DNA from: Candidatus Poribacteria bacterium
Lineage (GTDB): Bacteria > Poribacteria > WGA-4E > PCPOR2b
Reading direction: 5' to 3'
DNA: 64,000 nt
NCBI GenBank assembly: GCA_965208325.1
Contig: OZ242326.1
Location: 256,001-320,000 of the forward strand
Under the pieces are notes generated by a model. It was not told the DNA's origin, searched no databases, and saw only the letters and a list, made by a program, of their open reading frames with translations. A program made the translations under genes and the position numbers. Shown here piece by piece: positions 2,432-26,495 of this stretch. Each line of letters opens with the position of its first letter. Positions within the stretch are counted from its first letter, which is position 1.

Positions 2432-2475
2432 TATTTTGAGATTTCAGCCTAACTGTGAACCAAGAATCAAGCGTC

Positions 2476-3825
2476 TCATTCAATCTGGCCAATGTTCTTG
2501 GTGAGTGCGTCGCGGAAGGTTGAGGGTTTCATCTTGAGCAGTTTCGCTGCTTGCGTTTTGTTTCCGTTCGTTTTTTTCATCGCCCACGCGATGAGTTCGC
2601 GCTCGGTAGAACGGATAATTTCATGGAATGAAACCTCGCTCATTGAATCATTCAGATGGATATGGGTTCCGAGTTTCAAATCTATCGGAATTGCGTCGGC
2701 TGTGATTTCCCTTCCGCCGCTAACCGCTACAAGCCGTTCAACCATGTTCTCAAGCTCGCGTACATTGCCCGGCCACGCATAACCCGCCAACAGTTCAACA
2801 GCTTGCTGGGCGATTGGGATAGGTTGATTTGGAGAAAAAAGTTCCACGAAATGATTGATGAGTAGCGCAATGTCCTCGACGCGCTCTCGCAGCGGCGGCA
2901 GAAAGATTGGGACAACATTAAGGCGATAAAACAGGTCCCTTATATACGTCCCGCATTTTACCTTCTCCCGTAGATTCACCGTCGTTGCTGCAATAACCCT
3001 GACATCAACCTCGATTTGCGCCTCGCCGCCAACACGTTCAAACGCACCTATTTCCAGCGCACGCAAGAGTTTAATTTGTAAACTCATCGGGAGCGAATCT
3101 ACATCGTCTAGGAAGAGCGTCCCCTTATGTGCTAATTCAATTCGTCCAACCCTGTGTTCTTCTGTCGGACGCTCACGGCCGAATATCTCAAGCTCCAACA
3201 TCTCGTCCGAAACGCTTGCGCAGTTGACAGACACGAAAGCGTGATGTCCGCGCGGACTGTTGAGATGGATGGATTTTGCCAGAAGTTCTTTCCCTGTGCC
3301 GCTTTCACCAGAGACGAGCACATTGCCGTTTGACTCAGAAATCGTCTCAATCAAGGTAAGAATTTCCTGCATTGACCGGCTTTTTCCGATGATGTTTTGG
3401 TAAAGGCGCCACGGCTCAGGGTGGGACATTTGAGCGTGGGCTTCAAGCCCGCCTTTGTCTATCCCTTCCCGAATCTCCTTTAGTTTATCAAGCATGGCAA
3501 TCAACTCGCCGCTCGAAAACGGCTTCTTGATGTAGTTATATGCCCCCCATTTCATGGCTTCGACAGCGGTTTCCACGCTGGCATAAGCCGTCATGATAAT
3601 CACTGTGACGTGAGGGTGGTCCTTTTTGACGCGCTTGAGAAATTCGATGCCGTGCATCTTCGGCATGCGGAGATCTGTTACGAGAACGTCGAAGTGTTCA
3701 TTCTGGAATAACTGCAACGCAATCGCCGGGGACTCCACCGCAATTGTGTCGTAGTTTTCCTCACGCAAATCGTCTCGCAGCGTGATGCGTTTAATTTTTT
3801 CGTCGTCAACAACCAGTATTTTCAC
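2476..3825 (-). CDS. NtrC/Fis-family response regulator (REC-AAA+-HTH) lacking the GAFTGA motif
   Basis: REC (VDDE, TDLRMP, KPF), Walker A GESGTGKE, DLFYRLNV, WPGNVRELEN, C-terminal Fis HTH. Confidence 0.9.
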   Translation of the reverse strand: MKILVVDDEKIKRITLRDDLREENYDTIAVESPAIALQLFQNEHFDVLVTDLRMPKMHGIEFLKRVKKDHPHVTVIIMTAYASVETAVEAMKWGAYNYIKKPFSSGELIAMLDKLKEIREGIDKGGLEAHAQMSHPEPWRLYQNIIGKSRSMQEILTLIETISESNGNVLVSGESGTGKELLAKSIHLNSPRGHHAFVSVNCASVSDEMLELEIFGRERPTEEHRVGRIELAHKGTLFLDDVDSLPMSLQIKLLRALEIGAFERVGGEAQIEVDVRVIAATTVNLREKVKCGTYIRDLFYRLNVVPIFLPPLRERVEDIALLINHFVELFSPNQPIPIAQQAVELLAGYAWPGNVRELENMVERLVAVSGGREITADAIPIDLKLGTHIHLNDSMSEVSFHEIIRSTERELIAWAMKKTNGNKTQAAKLLKMKPSTFRDALTKNIGQIE

Positions 3826-5552
3826 CCTTCAACCTCAGCCTGCGGTATGGGTAGTTTTATGGTGAACACAGAACCTTGCCCCTCTTCGCTCTCGAATTCG
3901 ATGACACCGCCATGCTCCCTAACAATTCGATTGGATACAGAAAGCCCTAGCCCTGTGCCTTTTCCCGTAATTTTCGTCGTGTAAAATGGATCCAAAATCC
4001 GATCTCGAACCGAACTCGGAATACCTATTCCGGTATCCGTGACTTGAACGTATGCTACTGCTTCGTCTAGCAACGAATCAAATTCAATAGTACCGGTTTT
4101 GAAGGTCAGCACGCCCCCGTTCGGCATTGCTGCAATAGCGTTTAGTCCTAGATTCAGTGCAACCTGCTCCAGCAAGTGTTTGTCTCCTAGGATGGGCGTA
4201 AGACTCTCTTGAAACTGTCTTTCGATTTGAATGAGCTTTTCTTCCGCACTGTATTCTATCAGCCCAATGGCCTCATTTATCACTTCGTTTAACGACACCG
4301 ACGTGAGGGTTAGTTCATGTTTTCGTGAAAAGTTCAAAAGTTGCCTAACCGTGGATTCAATTCGCCGTATGGCTTCTTCCATAAGATCTAGGTATTCTTG
4401 AATTTGCGCTTCGTTCTTGGGATTGCGTCGAATTCGAAGCGTACAGTTGAGTAACCCGTCGAGCGGATTATTGATTTCATGCGCAACGCCAGCCGCTAAT
4501 TCTCCGATCGCCGCCATCTTTTCGGATTGGATCATCTGTACCTCCATCCGCTTCCGATCCGTTACGTCTCGGCAGACTAACACTGTTCCCAAATAGACGC
4601 CGTTGTCATCGCGAACTGCAGCGTACGTATTTTCGAAGAATTTATCCCTGATTTGGGCGCTCTGTTGTTCAATTACATCGCCTCCTTCAGACAAGTCTTT
4701 TGCAATTTGCGGATGAATGCCGTACGTCTCAGGGGACATGCTGTCGTCACCCTCGAGTCCGAATTGCTCTTTTCTAATCTGCTGTGCTGCCTTGTTGAAA
4801 AGCGACACACGGTTTCCGCTATCAACGAAAACCACTCCCTCCTGCATACACTCAATAATAGACTCAAGTTTATTCCGTTCAAACAGCACCTCGCGCCGCG
4901 CCTCTTCTAGTTCAACCACCTTTTCCTCAAGGCTCTCTTTCAGCTCAAACGTTTCCCCTTCACGCGCCCGTGCTGTATCCATTATTGAGGTCGCCAAGTA
5001 AACGGAAAAAAACAGTGTGCTCGTGAAAACAAAGAACACGCTTGCAATGTAGATTGGATTTCGCCATAGGTCTTCCGGCAAAAAACCTAAATGGTAATGG
5101 TGGATAATACCGTAGTGCTCAAGGAAAATGAGGGAACTCAACAAAAGCGTGTTTAGCGTTGCGAGGATATAGCTGACTTTCTTAGAAAGGAGAATGCTTG
5201 CAATCACCAAGTGAAAGATGAAATAAAATATGAACGGGTTTTCGATACCGCCGCTGAAATGGATGAGCGCAGTTAACGATAGCAAGTCCAAAACGATATG
5301 CGTGCCGGCGTGCCGTGTGATTGATGAGAGCGGCTTCTCAGCAATATGCCTCGGGTATATTTGCGCCTCAAGGTTGTAGAGTACCATCAACCCGGCAATG
5401 AGGAATAGCGGCAGCGAAGGCGCAATTATATTGAATCCCCAGCTTGCGACGCTGACGGTAAGAAAGACTCCCGCGATTGCTATCCAACGGAGTTTGACTA
5501 ACCATCCAATCCGCTGAATTAGTTCAGATTTGAGCGATAATTCCCGAGCCAT
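3822..5552 (-). CDS. Membrane sensor histidine kinase (RegB-like TM input, PAS, HisKA, HATPase)
   Basis: Multiple TM helices with LRWIAI and GGIENPF; H-box AHEINNPL; N, G1, F and G2 boxes; 4-bp overlap with the regulator. Confidence 0.92.
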   Translation of the reverse strand: MARELSLKSELIQRIGWLVKLRWIAIAGVFLTVSVASWGFNIIAPSLPLFLIAGLMVLYNLEAQIYPRHIAEKPLSSITRHAGTHIVLDLLSLTALIHFSGGIENPFIFYFIFHLVIASILLSKKVSYILATLNTLLLSSLIFLEHYGIIHHYHLGFLPEDLWRNPIYIASVFFVFTSTLFFSVYLATSIMDTARAREGETFELKESLEEKVVELEEARREVLFERNKLESIIECMQEGVVFVDSGNRVSLFNKAAQQIRKEQFGLEGDDSMSPETYGIHPQIAKDLSEGGDVIEQQSAQIRDKFFENTYAAVRDDNGVYLGTVLVCRDVTDRKRMEVQMIQSEKMAAIGELAAGVAHEINNPLDGLLNCTLRIRRNPKNEAQIQEYLDLMEEAIRRIESTVRQLLNFSRKHELTLTSVSLNEVINEAIGLIEYSAEEKLIQIERQFQESLTPILGDKHLLEQVALNLGLNAIAAMPNGGVLTFKTGTIEFDSLLDEAVAYVQVTDTGIGIPSSVRDRILDPFYTTKITGKGTGLGLSVSNRIVREHGGVIEFESEEGQGSVFTIKLPIPQAEVEG

Positions 5553-21832: not shown

Positions 21833-22099
21833 CTATGCAGTATCATCGCGTTTTTTATCTAGATCAAAGCCGTCCTTTATCCAATACACAAACTTGCATA
21901 TACCTTTTGGTAAGAAGTACAATGTGGCGCCGCCAGTTAAGGTGAAAAACAAGCAAATTGATGCGTCACTACGACTGTGATGCATAAGACTGTAGACTAA
22001 GCATAAACACCCGAAAGCCGCCCATAAACCACTTAATCCAACCGAACACGCGGCAACAATTCTTCTAACGCCCTCGGATCGAGGTTGCTTGCTCTTCAA
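21833..22099 (-). CDS. Small hypothetical membrane protein
   Basis: Two hydrophobic segments; GGAGG RBS before TTG. Confidence 0.5.
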   Translation of the reverse strand: MKSKQPRSEGVRRIVAACSVGLSGLWAAFGCLCLVYSLMHHSRSDASICLFFTLTGGATLYFLPKGICKFVYWIKDGFDLDKKRDDTA

Positions 22100-22115
22100 T
22101 CTAGGCCTCCGGTTG

Positions 22116-22502
22116 TCACCATTCTCGATCGACCCCGTAAGCGTTATATCCCGTGTCTACGCTAATTATTGGAAATCCTTCAACCAGTCCTTGAGCGATT
22201 ATCATGCGGTCAAATGGATCTCGGTGATGATATGGTAAATTGGTTAGCTTGATGAGGCTATCAACCGTAATATCCAATATCTCAATTTGATTCAGATGTA
22301 GTTCATCTGGAAACATCTGGTCAAACGGTCTGTCTAACTCAAGTTTCCCTAAACCCGTTTTAACTGCAATCTCCCATAGACTCGCAACACTGAATACACT
22401 TTCGTGGCTGGAATTCTCGATTAACTGTCGTGCTCTGCGGCTCAGTTTTTTGTCGTCAGCAAGAAACCAAAGCAGCGTATGTGTATCAAGCAGATACTTC
22501 AT
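22116..22502 (-). CDS. vapC: VapC PIN-domain toxin, intact
   Basis: YLLDTHTLLW, SVASLWEIAVK, HHRDPFDRMIIAQ, ISVD; acidic PIN residues present. Confidence 0.93.
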   Translation of the reverse strand: MKYLLDTHTLLWFLADDKKLSRRARQLIENSSHESVFSVASLWEIAVKTGLGKLELDRPFDQMFPDELHLNQIEILDITVDSLIKLTNLPYHHRDPFDRMIIAQGLVEGFPIISVDTGYNAYGVDREW

Positions 22503-23317
22503 TCCATATACTCTTTGAAATCCGGGAGTTCATCGTCAAAATCTTCGCGAATGTGAATAAGTCCTTTTGCGCTGCCAGCTACAGCCTTTAACCACGGTTC
22601 CAGAAAGACGGTCTTCCACTTAAATTGGTAGGTTGGCATCGTCGTGTTTATTGACTCAGCATAAAACAGGAAGTGATACTTTACATAAGTCTGGTCCAGC
22701 AATTTCATGCAATCATCCAGTTCCCCAAATGTCGGAACATCTTCCGAATCGTCCATGTCCCAATGTGCAATACGTTTATCAGCGATCGCTTCATGAATTT
22801 CTACGGCGGATTTGAGCCGTTTCAAATCGGCTTCTACCATCGTGGGGCACACATGCTTTCCGCTGGCATCTGTGTATCGCGCAAAGTCATTCATCTTAAT
22901 CAAATCTTTCGGTTTGGAGGTACCGGTAATCCCGACTTCTTCAAATTCGTTCCTTCCCTCTGTTTCTATTTGACTGATGTCAGGTCCATAAGGATAAGCA
23001 CAGAGGGAACGAAAGTAGTCGCGGGATAACTCTTCAGGGTTTTTCAAAATATCACCAAGCAATCCCACAAAGGATATACTGTCCTTTTGAGGTTTAATTT
23101 GTCGGAGCAGCCCAGCTAGTGCATGAGAAAGATAAGTCCGCCCAAGATAGCGGTAGAAGGCACTCGGTTTTTGGATACGCGGATTCGCGCGGATAATGTC
23201 TTGAACTTCCCAGAAAATATTCGCATCCACAACAAGACCCTGAATTTCGTCGCGAATCGCCTGCATCCATGTAAGCCACTTCTTGAGTTTCGGACTCGCC
23301 TTAAATTTCTGATTCAT
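22499..23317 (-). CDS. HEPN (AbiU2-like) domain fused to a C-terminal DUF2281/VapB-type antitoxin tail
   Basis: Helical domain with DSISF..LL and ADKRIAH, ending VFLEPWL, then AGSAKGLIHIREDFDDELPDFKEYME; ATGA overlap with vapC; start ATG 23317 inferred. Confidence 0.72.
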   Translation of the reverse strand: MNQKFKASPKLKKWLTWMQAIRDEIQGLVVDANIFWEVQDIIRANPRIQKPSAFYRYLGRTYLSHALAGLLRQIKPQKDSISFVGLLGDILKNPEELSRDYFRSLCAYPYGPDISQIETEGRNEFEEVGITGTSKPKDLIKMNDFARYTDASGKHVCPTMVEADLKRLKSAVEIHEAIADKRIAHWDMDDSEDVPTFGELDDCMKLLDQTYVKYHFLFYAESINTTMPTYQFKWKTVFLEPWLKAVAGSAKGLIHIREDFDDELPDFKEYME

Positions 23318-23421
23318 GGTATAAGCCTTTCTCAAACGGAAAAGTTCAGTTTTTCGATTATATGATGAGTGTCGCGCCGTTGAAGGTTACAGTTTTCCTC
23401 TGTCGGCGCAACGTATTGAGA

Positions 23422-23682
23422 TTATGAGGGCTGCAACGGCTTGTCAGACTGAAATGCACTGTACGCATACACGGGTGTCTCGATGACGCGAACAGGGCGG
23501 TGCTGTCCCCATGCAGCTTGCTGTAAAAGTTCGACGGTTTCTGGGGAGAAGTATCTTTCTCCTGTTTCGGCATTTACTCGGGCGGGCACATCTTCAACAA
23601 TAACGAACCGCCCATTGACTTCAACACTATACGTTACCCTTTTCTCAACTAAAGTCTCATTCCACACATTATCGTCGACCAT
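23422..23682 (-). CDS. YgiT-type (MqsA N-terminal-like) antitoxin, Cys-less variant
   Basis: VTYSVEVNGRFVIVEDVPARVNAETGERYFSPETV; ATG 23682 after GGAG/GAGG. Confidence 0.8.
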   Translation of the reverse strand: MVDDNVWNETLVEKRVTYSVEVNGRFVIVEDVPARVNAETGERYFSPETVELLQQAAWGQHRPVRVIETPVYAYSAFQSDKPLQPS

Positions 23683-23725
23683 GCTGCCTCTTCTCCGTCT
23701 TGAATTCAATCCATCGTATTATTCG
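23669..23725 (-). pseudogene. Possible C-terminal remnant of a DUF4258-type toxin
   Basis: Frame reads RIIRWIEFKTEKRQHGRR*, overlapping the YgiT start, like the W.DF..R tail of DUF4258 genes that usually precede YgiT genes. Confidence 0.35.
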
Positions 23726-23738
23726 GATTGATTGGATT

Positions 23739-23859
23739 TCAAAGTTGATTGAGCAATCCATCATATTCGGCGTGAGAGCCTATCCAAAACCGATAAATCC
23801 TATCATCTTCCCGCAAGCCCAAAGCACGCAAGAAAATCCTCTGCCAGATATGAGTTCAC
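23739..23859 (-). pseudogene. RelE/ParE-like toxin pseudogene with internal deletion and frameshift
   Basis: GTG-start MNSYLAEDFLACF joined out of frame to RALGLREDDRIYRFWIGSHAEYDGLLNQL*; central part missing; overlaps antitoxin stop. Confidence 0.8.
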
Positions 23860-24074
23860 AACTCATCAATTCCCATCTTTTTGATGCGGCCTGCCTTAAT
23901 GTCAGTTCGGACTTTGAGGGCGAGTTTGGCAAGTTTATCATGTGATTCGGAAAAAGCCGCATCCCATCGTCCTTCATCGTCGAGTTCTTCAAGGATCAAC
24001 GCCGCAATGGTGTCCTGTTTTTCAGGTGGAAGTTTATAAACCTCAATGAGTGCTTTTTCAAGAAGTTGTGTCAT
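23856..24074 (-). CDS. Putative antitoxin (MTQLLEKA...WD..F family)
   Basis: MTQLLEKALIEVYKLPPEKQDTIAALILEELDDEGRWDAAFSES; directly upstream of the toxin remnant; GAGG RBS. Confidence 0.75.
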   Translation of the reverse strand: MTQLLEKALIEVYKLPPEKQDTIAALILEELDDEGRWDAAFSESHDKLAKLALKVRTDIKAGRIKKMGIDEL

Positions 24075-24119
24075 AATTGCTGTTCCTTCCTCTACTGGAT
24101 GTAGCGCGTTTAGCATTCG

Positions 24120-24384
24120 TTACGGGAAGTATCAAAATATGTCCCGGCGCGTTTGGCACCGTACAAACATTGTGCTGTCTTGGTTTAACGGTAGACCAAG
24201 CCATTATTCGCCAATCCAAAATCGATAGCAACTTCCACTGCCGCTGAGTTTTCGGACATTACTCACTTTTTTGAGGTCGTCTACTTCTTCAATTCGTTGT
24301 ATCGCTGGCCTGACAAAGAATTTCCCGGAATGCCCTGCTGCGTCTCATGACCCGGGTGAAGCTGTTTCAAAACTCAACTTTCAC
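24120..24384 (-). pseudogene. RelE/ParE toxin pseudogene (three in-frame stops plus a frameshift)
   Basis: MKVEF*NSFTR... then VRPAIQRIEEVDDLKKVSNVRKLSGSGSCYRFWIGE*WLG...FVRCQTRRDIF*YFP*, matching the RelE-type consensus ending HRRDIYRYFP. Confidence 0.85.
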
Positions 24385-24590
24385 GATTCGGTTTCTAAAA
24401 TTTTGAAGACCTGTTTTCTAGGGACAATCCCGGTCTCTTCCCCGTCTTTGATTGCATTAGCTAGAGCCACATCTTCAAGAACTTCAATGAATACATCATA
24501 CAATAAATCTCTCCGTTCCTGTAACAGTTCGGCGGTCGCTTGTTTGAACACTTCCTTCAGTTGATTCTTATCATCAATTATCTGTTGCAT
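24381..24590 (-). CDS. Putative antitoxin partner of the RelE pseudogene
   Basis: LKEVFKQA..ELLQERRDL....EVLEDVALANAIKDGE; GTGA overlap with the relE remnant. Confidence 0.75.
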   Translation of the reverse strand: MQQIIDDKNQLKEVFKQATAELLQERRDLLYDVFIEVLEDVALANAIKDGEETGIVPRKQVFKILETES

Positions 24591-24623
24591 ATCAGGCTCT
24601 TAAATTACTTAATCTCAAGCGGT

Positions 24624-24848
24624 TTAAACATTGCCAAGCGAAAGTATCTTTGCTTGTACAGATTCCAAAATTGAATCTCGAATGAACGCACTAGCATTTA
24701 AAATTTCGATACCGATTAGTTCTCCGGCGTCATTTAATTCTACCGTAATATTGGGATTCAGTTCAATACTTCCCCTTTCGGGTTCATCAGAAATCTCCAA
24801 ATGCAATACGTCTTCTTGCTCAAAATATGCCATCTTTGTATTATTCAA
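24624..24848 (-). CDS. DUF2283 domain protein (orphan antitoxin-type)
   Basis: YFEQEDVLHL...IELNPNITVELNDAGELIGIEILNAS; TTG 24848 after GAGG. Confidence 0.85.
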   Translation of the reverse strand: MNNTKMAYFEQEDVLHLEISDEPERGSIELNPNITVELNDAGELIGIEILNASAFIRDSILESVQAKILSLGNV

Positions 24849-24956
24849 GCGTATACCTCTGAATTGCAGCGATATAAGAATTCCAAAATTTCTGAGATTT
24901 TCTTCGAATCGTGATGATTTCAAGAGTTACCGGCAGAATAAACCATCTCCCGTGGG

Positions 24957-26495
24957 TTAATCTGAAAAACTATGTTCTGCTTTAGCGGAAGGGTAATCCA
25001 AGCACATAGACTCGTGCTCCGCACCCGCATCTATTTCATGAAGCAATACTTTATGGATTTCTACCATAGCAAGTGTGTCCATCCTGCAATAATTCTTCAA
25101 GTGATAAATCATATTGCCTTTTTCTACTTCCCCCGTGGTGTTAATCATCAAATCCCAGACAGCCTGGGCGTCATCGCCGTCTTGAACATCCAAAGTCTGG
25201 TAGGAAAGAGACGGTACCAAAATAGGAAGTACGTTCTTTAGAGAATTTGAACCACCAAAACCGGGGTGTTTATAGTGATTTTTAAAAATCAACAGCTGGT
25301 CCCATAGTCTGGAAACAACTGACTGAAGTGCTCCAGAGTATTCAGGGAAATATTGAGCCAATTCCTCAAATCTCTCGCGTTCAAAAGAAGCAGAATAGAC
25401 TACCACCGAACCGACATCGGAGATATGATTAAGCATAGATTCCACTAAAGGTAATCTTGGATCAGTTGTATCGGTGTGCAAGTATTCGTGATGTGTAATC
25501 GAACCGTCTGATTGCAAAATGTGGCAACTGTACTGAAATGGAAAGTGATTGTACGGACTTAAACCCTCAAACCTCGGAATCGCAGGGTTGAGCGTTTCAA
25601 AATCAAAGAAATGAATAGGATATTCTAATTCTGATAATTCGTTTCTGATTGCCGCAACATCAATCTCTGGCTGATTATTCAGAACCATATCAACGTAAGC
25701 GCGCTGATTTTGAGTCAATGCAAAATCGGCAGGGAGATCTTCAAGACTAAAGACTCCGCTTTCTATCAACTGGTTTTTTTTATCCCAACTAAGTCGCGGA
25801 ATAGTGAAAATTGAGGGTTCAGGAACGAACTCCCAACAATGGTCCTTAAACGGGCAAGTGTCGGGCTCGTCACACTGCTTTCCTATTGAGACGACCGGTT
25901 CAACGTCACCTTGAAGTATTGATTTGAATGTCTCTACATCGCCGGGGACATTTTCCATCAATGGGTCAACTCGATCGGTTACATCATCAAAAACAAACAA
26001 ATTAGAGAGGTCCGGATAAACACATTCTCGATTTATATGCATCAACTGTGTTCTAGAGATGGACACGCCGATTTCACTCAAGACGTACTTTAGGGCAGCT
26101 AGTTCATGCAAATGCGCTTCTTTGACATTTTTTGACGCGGTGACTTTAATGATTTTCCACGACTTTGAGTCTTTCTGAAGAACATCACACCGTGCCGAAA
26201 TACCATCAAAATTAAAGATAGGTTCAAAGATGTACGGTACGCCGCGTCGCATGGCATCTTGGGTTTGCTCTGAAGACTCCTCATGATCCAAGGAATCAAT
26301 CAACATGCCCCCCGGAAAATTATCTCGAGCAAGAACTCTGACCTCTGTGCTTTGATTGATAATTCGCTGTTGCGATCTGGATACTGTAGATGCTCTCTGT
26401 GGATGGCTCTTTTCACACCAAAGGCGTTCATACCATAGGCGTTTGTGACATTGCAGCCCGCTCATATATTTGGAATTCGTAACGAACATTTCCAT
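24957..26495 (-). CDS. DUF2779 domain protein (Cas4/PD-(D/E)XK-like N-part plus RNase H-like domain)
   Basis: SKYMSGLQCHKRLW, C..P..CPF..HCW, YPIHFFDFET, PFQYSCH, SLKNVLP, YCRMDT. Confidence 0.85.
   Translation of the reverse strand: MEMFVTNSKYMSGLQCHKRLWYERLWCEKSHPQRASTVSRSQQRIINQSTEVRVLARDNFPGGMLIDSLDHEESSEQTQDAMRRGVPYIFEPIFNFDGISARCDVLQKDSKSWKIIKVTASKNVKEAHLHELAALKYVLSEIGVSISRTQLMHINRECVYPDLSNLFVFDDVTDRVDPLMENVPGDVETFKSILQGDVEPVVSIGKQCDEPDTCPFKDHCWEFVPEPSIFTIPRLSWDKKNQLIESGVFSLEDLPADFALTQNQRAYVDMVLNNQPEIDVAAIRNELSELEYPIHFFDFETLNPAIPRFEGLSPYNHFPFQYSCHILQSDGSITHHEYLHTDTTDPRLPLVESMLNHISDVGSVVVYSASFERERFEELAQYFPEYSGALQSVVSRLWDQLLIFKNHYKHPGFGGSNSLKNVLPILVPSLSYQTLDVQDGDDAQAVWDLMINTTGEVEKGNMIYHLKNYCRMDTLAMVEIHKVLLHEIDAGAEHESMCLDYPSAKAEHSFSD

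Follow-up and report, generated by a model that had tools for sequence, protein, structure and literature searches.

In canonical VapBC pairs the antitoxin has an N-terminal Phd/VapB domain of about 40 residues and a C-terminal tail, and its gene comes directly before that of the toxin VapC, with overlapping stop and start codons. In PanA, a globular domain is predicted to lie outside neutralisation and a borrowed Phd-C element touches the toxin at its active site (NetFlax, excerpted text of PMC10440598). In the AbiU locus of L. lactis, AbiUii, which is a HEPN protein, made the nuclease-like AbiUi less active (Dai et al. 2001, from the summary in an excerpt of PMC13064643). In the HEPN-MNT pairs (HepT/MntA), HEPN acts as the toxin, with a nucleotidyltransferase as its antitoxin. 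Here we describe a two-gene locus of a Candidatus Poribacteria bacterium (GenBank assembly GCA_965208325.1, contig OZ242326.1), which lies in a stretch of 64,000 nucleotides (positions 256,001 to 320,000 of the forward strand) called the window in the following; coordinates are counted from its first letter. The locus consists of a vapC gene (protein P0002) and, in the place of the antitoxin, a gene for a protein of 272 amino acids (aa), P0001, called the HEPN-tail gene below. Quite probably it is a VapBC-type module in which a HEPN body of the AbiU2 family replaces the DNA-binding/dimerising domain of the antitoxin. The initial annotation of this DNA had proposed such a chimeric antitoxin, and the proposal is supported by the homology of the tail, the profile matches of relatives, the conservation of both parts and a model of the complex.

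How does the locus compare with the systems above? With the canonical VapBC pairs (from Chondrocystis and from the Poribacterial loci L063 and L064) it shares the tail pattern GSAKG..I..(E/D)DFD.(E)L..F.EYM, a VapC subfamily with 46-68% identity, the order of antitoxin and toxin genes and the stop codon that overlaps a start codon. It differs from them in that a 243-residue AbiU2 HEPN bundle stands where they have their small N-terminal domain, and a DNA-binding domain is not detectable in P0001. With PanA it shares, as far as the excerpted text goes (PMC10440598), the principle that a non-neutralising globular domain carries a borrowed C-terminal neutralising element, but the parts are Panacea and Doc there and HEPN and a PIN nuclease here, and the HEPN-tail fusion is found in one phylum as far as searched, no search for other carriers of the tail having been made outside that phylum. 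The body belongs to the family named for AbiUii, and as in the excerpted account of AbiU a HEPN protein neighbours a nuclease-like effector; in contrast to AbiU there is no AbiUi-like partner here, and control of VapC would go through a grafted VapB tail according to the model. The likeness to HEPN-MNT is that a HEPN domain sits inside a two-gene toxin-antitoxin locus, while here it takes the position of the antitoxin. No nucleotidyltransferase family was found among the neighbouring open reading frames (ORFs) scanned in the window, and because of this a HEPN-MNT (type VII) assignment was rejected. None of the titles and abstract openings found in the literature describes a HEPN body that bears a VapB tail.

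The HEPN-tail gene runs on the minus strand from an ATG at 23317 to a stop codon at 22499-22501 (Table 1), with an alternative TTG start upstream at 23335, and is present in one copy in the window's own genome. A gene of about 270 aa overlapping vapC through ATGA had been noticed initially and is borne out, and the strings then quoted (ADKRIAH, VFLEPWL and KAVAGSAKGLIHIREDFDDELPDFKEYME) all occur in the translation of P0001. The gene order and the stop/start overlap are those of an antitoxin followed by its toxin. The junction ATGGAATGA is found in the window and in all 16 of the 16 tail-bearing loci of named Poribacteria genomes.

Table 1. Features of the HEPN-tail/vapC locus and its surroundings in the window.
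Feature	Position	Strand	Basis
HEPN-tail gene (P0001), non-canonical antitoxin, 272 aa	22502..23317	-	ORF; N-terminus MNQKF common to relatives
Body, residues 1-243: AbiU2-family HEPN four-helix bundle	22589..23317	-	PF18734 matches of relatives, AF2 model, Atlas
Tail, residues 244-272: predicted VapB-type VapC-binding module	22502..22588	-	NF050009, complex model
ATGA overlap, HEPN-tail stop and vapC start	22499..22502	-	read directly from the sequence
vapC, PIN-domain toxin, intact, 128 aa (P0002)	22116..22502	-	Pfam PIN match, invariant acids
ADKRIAH, residues 179-185, C-terminal end of helix 3, HEPN Rx4-6H place	22763..22783	-	conservation, AF2
Variable insert stretch, helices 2-3	22901..22999	-	pLDDT 55-59; deleted in relatives of 247-250 aa; dN/dS 0.19
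L71 codon, place of near-invariant arginine of the family (RRQ, helix 2)	23105..23107	-	alignment of relatives
YgiT-like small gene, 95 aa, no cysteines, upstream of HEPN-tail gene	23422..23709	-	TIGR03831, E 1.9e-4
DUF2779 protein, 512 aa, bordering the small-gene cluster	24957-26495	-	E 1.7e-41

The tail ties P0001 to the VapB antitoxins. Residues 240-271 match positions 34-65 of the 65 positions of NF050009 (TA_VapB) with an E value of 1.4e-8, and this is the only NF050009 match in the window's genome. The score of 35.1 bits is below the whole-protein cut-off of 60 bits because only half of the model is present. The full-length VapB of the Poribacterial locus L063 scores 91.1 bits with the same model; therefore P0001 as a whole is not a member of VapB, and its tail alone is homologous. 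A weak match to positions 39-64 of the 64 positions of Pfam DUF2281 was also obtained (E 0.021). As in vapB genes, the C-terminal, putatively toxin-binding tail is encoded directly before vapC and overlaps it. The same tail ends small canonical antitoxins. On plasmid AP018284 of Chondrocystis sp. NIES-4102, a 75-aa Phd-type antitoxin that matches both phd_fam and NF050009 ends in ...GSAKGKVWMSDDFDEPLEDFKEYME and adjoins a VapC that has 46% identity with P0002. Two Poribacterial loci are similar: in L064 a Phd-like antitoxin of 76 aa with the tail stands next to a VapC 68% identical to P0002, and in L063 the full-length VapB is accompanied by a VapC with 47% identity; altogether, the small Poribacterial antitoxins ending in this tail are 68-76 aa long and stand beside VapCs of 47-68% identity. 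The initial assignment of the tail to the C-terminus of DUF2281/Phd-type antitoxins paired with this VapC subfamily thus agrees with the profile and with all three canonical loci. Since the tail is carried by the HEPN body, by a VapB-type module (L063) and by a Phd-type module (L064), it occurs on three N-terminal modules in one phylum. When a canonical antitoxin was compared with solved structures by sequence, only weak rows for its N-terminal domain were obtained.

P0002 matches the Pfam PIN profile (PF01850) with an E value of 5.4e-14 and 53.3 bits, well over the cut-off of 23.6, and its acidic residues D6, E44, D95, D98 and D116 do not vary among 21 aligned orthologues. Its assignment to VapC rests on this profile match and these conserved acids, and both agree with the earlier statement that the toxin is intact. 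It is the only copy of its VapC subfamily in the window's genome, and no NCBIfam model matches it. That it is the sole intact toxin of the island is consistent with the ORFs scanned, a scan that did not cover all small frames.

Does the tail bind this toxin? The full-length antitoxin (alignment A1) and VapC (alignment A4) were submitted to complex prediction in three runs with three controls. The score was 0.70 in the three runs and 0.00 in the best of the controls; the mark used for this score is reached by 116 of 157 solved complexes and by 2 of 215 mismatched pairs. Contacts agree between the runs to at least 98%, with a partner predicted local distance difference test score (pLDDT) of at least 91. 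On the antitoxin side, the confident interface comprises residues 241, 243-257, 259-262, 264, 267 and 270-271, that is, the tail only and no body. On the toxin side it includes residues 8, 11, 13-16, 47-48, 51-58 and 94-96, beside D6, E44 and D95, and the tightest pairs join tail residues 253-257 with VapC residues 53-57. Binding of the tail to VapC on its active-site side is supported by this model. No solved structure related to P0002 was found at E<=0.001 with a VapC profile search, which makes it less likely that the prediction passed because a close homologue had been learned. In the AlphaFold2 (AF2) model of P0001 alone, the tail is disordered (pLDDT 44-64). Judging from homology and the complex model, we suppose that the tail lies along VapC, with LIHIR against residues 53-57, and that the PIN nuclease would be held inactive, since the tail reaches residues beside its catalytic acids. 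The HEPN body would stay outside the interface and may serve as a stable, probably dimeric, carrier of the tail.

The assignment of the body to AbiU2 comes from its relatives. The gathering score of the Pfam family HEPN_AbiU2 (PF18734) is 26.8 bits. Among 19 close relatives of P0001, 13 match this family at E<=1 and two exceed its cut-off, namely P0043 (72% identical over the full length, 34.5 bits) and P0075 (67% identical, 28.5 bits); the match spans residues 12-233. In an Atlas search, all 30 of 30 feature hits are AbiU2 clusters (score 0.95), and the structures there align to AbiU2 clusters with template modelling scores of 0.80 and 0.73. These matches therefore give AbiU2 membership by homology, not from the window sequence alone. 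In an exhaustive search without a profile, 1353 cluster representatives reached E<=0.001; most of these are 205-250 aa long and end near query residue 243-245, so that they are tail-less. The AF2 model of P0001 (pLDDT 81.7, predicted template modelling score 0.77) has helices at 9-44, 53-74, 158-185 and 197-219, which is the four-helix topology of HEPN, while residues 75-157, which link helices 2 and 3, form a poorly predicted insert. The fold of the body is thus a four-helix bundle in the model, but the searches against solved structures do not single out HEPN. Foldseek with the P0001 model found nothing at E<=0.001, a designed repeat protein was all that the body profile retrieved by sequence, and the wide VIA-align search returned generic helical bundles, with a designed protein at the top (Z 9.4).

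In HEPN domains, the Rx4-6H motif is placed at the end of helix 3 in the excerpted text of Anantharaman et al. (PMC3710099), and in the AF2 model ADKRIAH185 ends helix 3 at this very place. Conservation was measured in a close set of 120 proteins, consisting of the window protein and 119 listed relatives with 63-89% identity, and in 123 distant relatives. H185 is kept in 120/120 and 123/123 of them, respectively, R71 in 114/120 and 121/123, and R72 in 118/120 and 119/123. As in the tail-less relatives, H185, N45, R72 and D187 are kept in 118-120 of the 120 tailed proteins. The basic residues K181 and R182 stand at positions -4 and -3 from H185.

Could the fusion be an artefact? The tail is present in 120/120 proteins of the close set; the strict tail pattern was found in 108 of them, and the other 12 have variant tails, as seen by inspection. 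Two contigs from other studies (X5 and X6) cover positions 22000-23800 unbroken, with 6 and 19 substitutions and no indels, and 16 of the 18 loci in named Poribacteria genomes are tail-bearing. An assembly chimera or misjoin peculiar to the window's genome was therefore rejected, and its chance is close to nil. The initial annotation had itself named an assembly chimera or a recent neutral deletion joining two genes as what would overturn it; the independent contigs and the purifying selection reported below refute both. Near-identical DNA is present in sponge metagenomes, and there are no RNA runs among the public runs listed as carrying it. In one of these runs (X1), the summed contig depth at 22488-22548 is 113.8 as compared with 22.5 elsewhere, because there are several very short contigs with one or two differences; the junction of the tail and the vapC start seems to be common to other strains or paralogues in that sample.

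Among the 16 tail-bearing loci of named genomes, ten have an intact overlapping vapC and one has an in-frame deletion (107 aa), while vapC is truncated in three (68, 88 and 24 aa) and lacking in two (L012 and L007). In the vapC place, L012 has a pair of transposases of insertion sequence type (3846-5005) and L007 has a HicB/UPF0150-like gene (3838-4041). A vapC is absent from both of the tail-less loci, L016 and L017. A profile search found the body family in 84 of 176 Poribacterial genomes. Of the best 30 loci of the phylum, 29 have the tail and one does not, and of the 29 tailed loci 21 possess an intact vapC and one has a vapC with an in-frame deletion, whereas in seven the gene is broken or lost; note that 15 of these 30 loci come from the same genomes as among the 18 above, as judged by identical figures. 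In L040 and L042 only remnants of vapC are left, and the tail is extended by a few residues beyond the lost stop. Some genomes hold more than one tailed gene. In G030 (L026/L065) a clade-A HEPN-tail gene and vapC are followed by another tailed HEPN gene, whose motif is degenerate and after which no vapC hit was obtained, and in G021 (L031) two tailed copies lie about 1.6 kb apart. The ratio of nonsynonymous to synonymous rates (dN/dS) was calculated by the Nei-Gojobori method (NG86) for the 55 pairs of 11 genomes with intact vapC. Body and insert have medians of 0.15 and 0.19, respectively; the medians of the tail and of vapC are 0.07 and 0.20. Judged by these comparisons of sequences, the fusion is old and conserved across Poribacteria.

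A tree was built from 55 chosen rows, consisting of 13 of the 120 close proteins (clade A), five short tailed forms (clade B), seven tail-less Poribacterial proteins and 30 distant ones, with the tails removed before alignment. The 18 tailed rows form one group with a Shimodaira-Hasegawa-like approximate likelihood ratio test (SH-aLRT) value of 81, which is not starred, and this group is nested in a clade with a starred value of 99, which also contains three tail-less rows from Poribacteria. A single change in the tree suffices for the tail-less label. The clade B forms are on long branches (0.69 and 0.82, compared with 0.05-0.12 in clade A). The topology is therefore compatible with one origin and does not prove it; the fusion most likely arose once within Poribacteria. 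As a scenario, a resident AbiU2-like gene may have been joined to the 3' end of a canonical vapB preceding vapC, after which the toxicity of VapC would have enforced retention of the tail.

Clade B is informative on the role of the body. It comprises the tailed form of about 225 aa in five genomes (L054, L055, L056, L060 and L061, at about 2450-3600 in each), at a syntenically different site whose neighbours are amidohydrolase-, ThuA- and PhyH-like genes. These proteins have lost the C-terminal WKxIFxxPW segment, and the tail directly follows ...LQPPRQA. The motif reads ADERLAYLE, H185 is kept in 0 of 8 proteins (Y in six, R in one, D in one), and K181 is replaced by E in seven. A model of one of these proteins keeps the four long helices (pLDDT 76.5). 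A vapC follows the HEPN-tail gene in 5/5 loci and is intact in four. Clade B thus keeps tail and vapC without H185, and therefore neutralisation would need no HEPN motif. In addition, five tail-less solo paralogues have no conserved partner gene, as seen by inspection of their ORFs only; the AbiU2-like family is thus not constitutively toxic.

What, then, does the HEPN body do? One explanation is that it does nothing beyond carrying the tail: an AbiU2-like gene would have been fused to the end of vapB through a deletion, and the product would be a relic kept by addiction. We regard this as a minority possibility, though the foremost of the alternatives. It would account for a body outside the interface, for the tail being the most constrained part, for the occurrence of the same tail on three N-terminal modules in the phylum, and for the fast evolution of the clade B bodies with loss of the motif. 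However, the body of clade A is under purifying selection itself and keeps all residues conserved in the tail-less family, so that it most likely retains the AbiU2 family's own function, and the HEPN-tail gene is whole in the seven loci where vapC is broken or lost; therefore, VapC alone does not explain its retention. That function might be catalytic. The HEPN domain could be an active ribonuclease (RNase), so that both proteins would be effectors or the HEPN domain would degrade vapC or other mRNA in a type V-like manner. A toxin-antitoxin pair whose antitoxin is also an RNase has been reported (excerpted text of PMC10714953), H185 is at the place of the HEPN catalytic histidine, and this histidine and the accompanying N45, R72 and D187 are kept in nearly all tailed proteins. 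Still, we judge a dual-ribonuclease module unlikely, as the canonical arginine spacing is absent, the window copy has R71L, clade B has dispensed with the histidine, and the partnerless solo paralogues argue against a toxic family; no activity data for AbiU2-family proteins were found in the titles and abstract openings of the literature.

The body might also be a sensor. The initial annotation had suggested, besides a dual-RNase system, an abortive-infection switch in which a trigger acting on the HEPN domain would free VapC; the body might sense RNA or something made by a phage, or it might be the target of a protease. The body family is named after a lactococcal abortive-infection locus and HEPN domains are common in defence (PMC3710099, excerpted text), and the effect of AbiUii on AbiUi in the excerpted account (PMC13064643) gives a precedent for a regulator role. 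Purifying selection on the body with retention of family-specific residues fits this explanation as well, and recognition could take place on the insert that joins helices 2 and 3, which is variable and modelled with low confidence. In six genomes, moreover, antitoxin modules sit on both ends of the HEPN body, and in these triple fusions a DUF4258 toxin would be freed too. On the other side, the body is absent from the tail-VapC interface in the model and unlinked to it, PADLOC matched neither the HEPN-tail protein nor VapC, the locus is a syntenic chromosomal site with no evident defence island, and clade B altered the conserved HEPN residues and kept the module. No relatives were seen on mobile elements either: tblastn with the tail-less relative P0124 found no match on PLSDB plasmids, and of the 54 pattern matches with alignment A1 in viral contigs none is a relative. 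A sensor-gated switch of this kind therefore appears rather improbable.

Several points weigh against the preferred reading, in which an AbiU2-family HEPN body replaces the DNA-binding domain of a VapB-type antitoxin, and should be noticed. The likeness of the body to AbiU2-type HEPN proteins, stated in the initial annotation, holds by way of the relatives and the Atlas clusters but not for the window protein, which has no AbiU2 Pfam match (PF18734) at E<=1; a PF18734 scan of its whole genome also gave nothing at that level. HEPN entries in VIA-align have Z scores of 6.7-7.8 among many unrelated rows and do not discriminate. I/F, A and D occupy positions -7 to -5 relative to H185, so the canonical arginine of Rx4-6H is absent. 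Residue 71, a near-invariant arginine, is L in the window copy and in no other; for this codon no variant is listed in four public runs. Neither Pfam nor NCBIfam finds a DNA-binding family in P0001, as type II autoregulation would call for, so the usual autoregulation is left unexplained. The binding of the tail to VapC is a prediction of the complex model, and complexes of PIN toxins with antitoxins are in general well represented among solved structures. The branch for a single origin has an SH-aLRT support of only 81%, with clade B long-branched. In 7/29 loci vapC is broken or gone and the HEPN-tail gene is whole; it may therefore be kept for something other than control of VapC.

Upstream of the HEPN-tail gene there are further small genes. 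The 95-aa ORF matches the YgiT-type finger model (TIGR03831, 21.7 bits, cut-off 20.2). Known toxin-antitoxin pairs of this kind are the MqsR/MqsA-like and the DUF4258/YgiT-type ones. With these pairs the surroundings of the HEPN-tail gene share the toxin-first order in six related loci, where an intact 103-aa DUF4258 gene (Pfam E 3e-18) is directly before the YgiT-like domain (L006, L008, L010, L012, L015 and L018). The difference is that the YgiT-like domain here has no cysteines and that it is fused in frame to the HEPN-tail protein in six genomes (L006, L007, L008, L010, L012 and L015, around 2700-3800 of these loci; 350-369 aa). The protein collection also contains such fusions, 345-346 aa long, namely P0027, which has 86 member sequences, and P0051. 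Such a chain has an antitoxin-type module at each end; in the window the two are separate genes. The DUF4258 gene is truncated in L007 and absent from the window, where a possible remnant of its C-terminus, 11 residues at 23687-23719, gives a weak match (E 7.9). The architecture would permit a further step, to which we give little weight: in the six genomes, VapC might be held on the tail and a DUF4258 toxin on the YgiT-like domain of the same HEPN protein, and a trigger on the HEPN body, be it a phage factor, RNA binding or proteolysis, would free one or two nucleases simultaneously. If true, this would be a modular sensor-gated abortive-infection switch built of toxin-antitoxin parts.

Farther upstream, on the minus strand at 23856-24923, there is an ORF of 86 aa that matches no family, next to genes for a RelB-like antitoxin (PF25734, E 2.2e-16) and for a DUF2283 protein (E 1.7e-14). 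No recognisable toxin partner for these three genes was found among the neighbouring ORFs scanned.

What does the locus mean for these families? The hosts are uncultivated sponge symbionts, so the value of the finding is mechanistic and not applied. For the AbiU2 HEPN family, for which biochemical data were not found in the titles and abstract openings of the literature, it would give a first experimental handle. Neutralising tails are thought to be portable, and here the same tail is found on VapB-type, Phd-type and HEPN modules beside the same VapC subfamily, which shows that a tail of this kind can pass from one protein to another unrelated one. Five states occur in nature, namely tail-less solo proteins, tailed proteins with the HEPN residues intact, tailed proteins with these lost, double-ended fusions, and loci that have lost the toxin. 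This natural series makes it directly testable whether a defence-type domain in such a place acts as a sensor, as a second nuclease or as a carrier.

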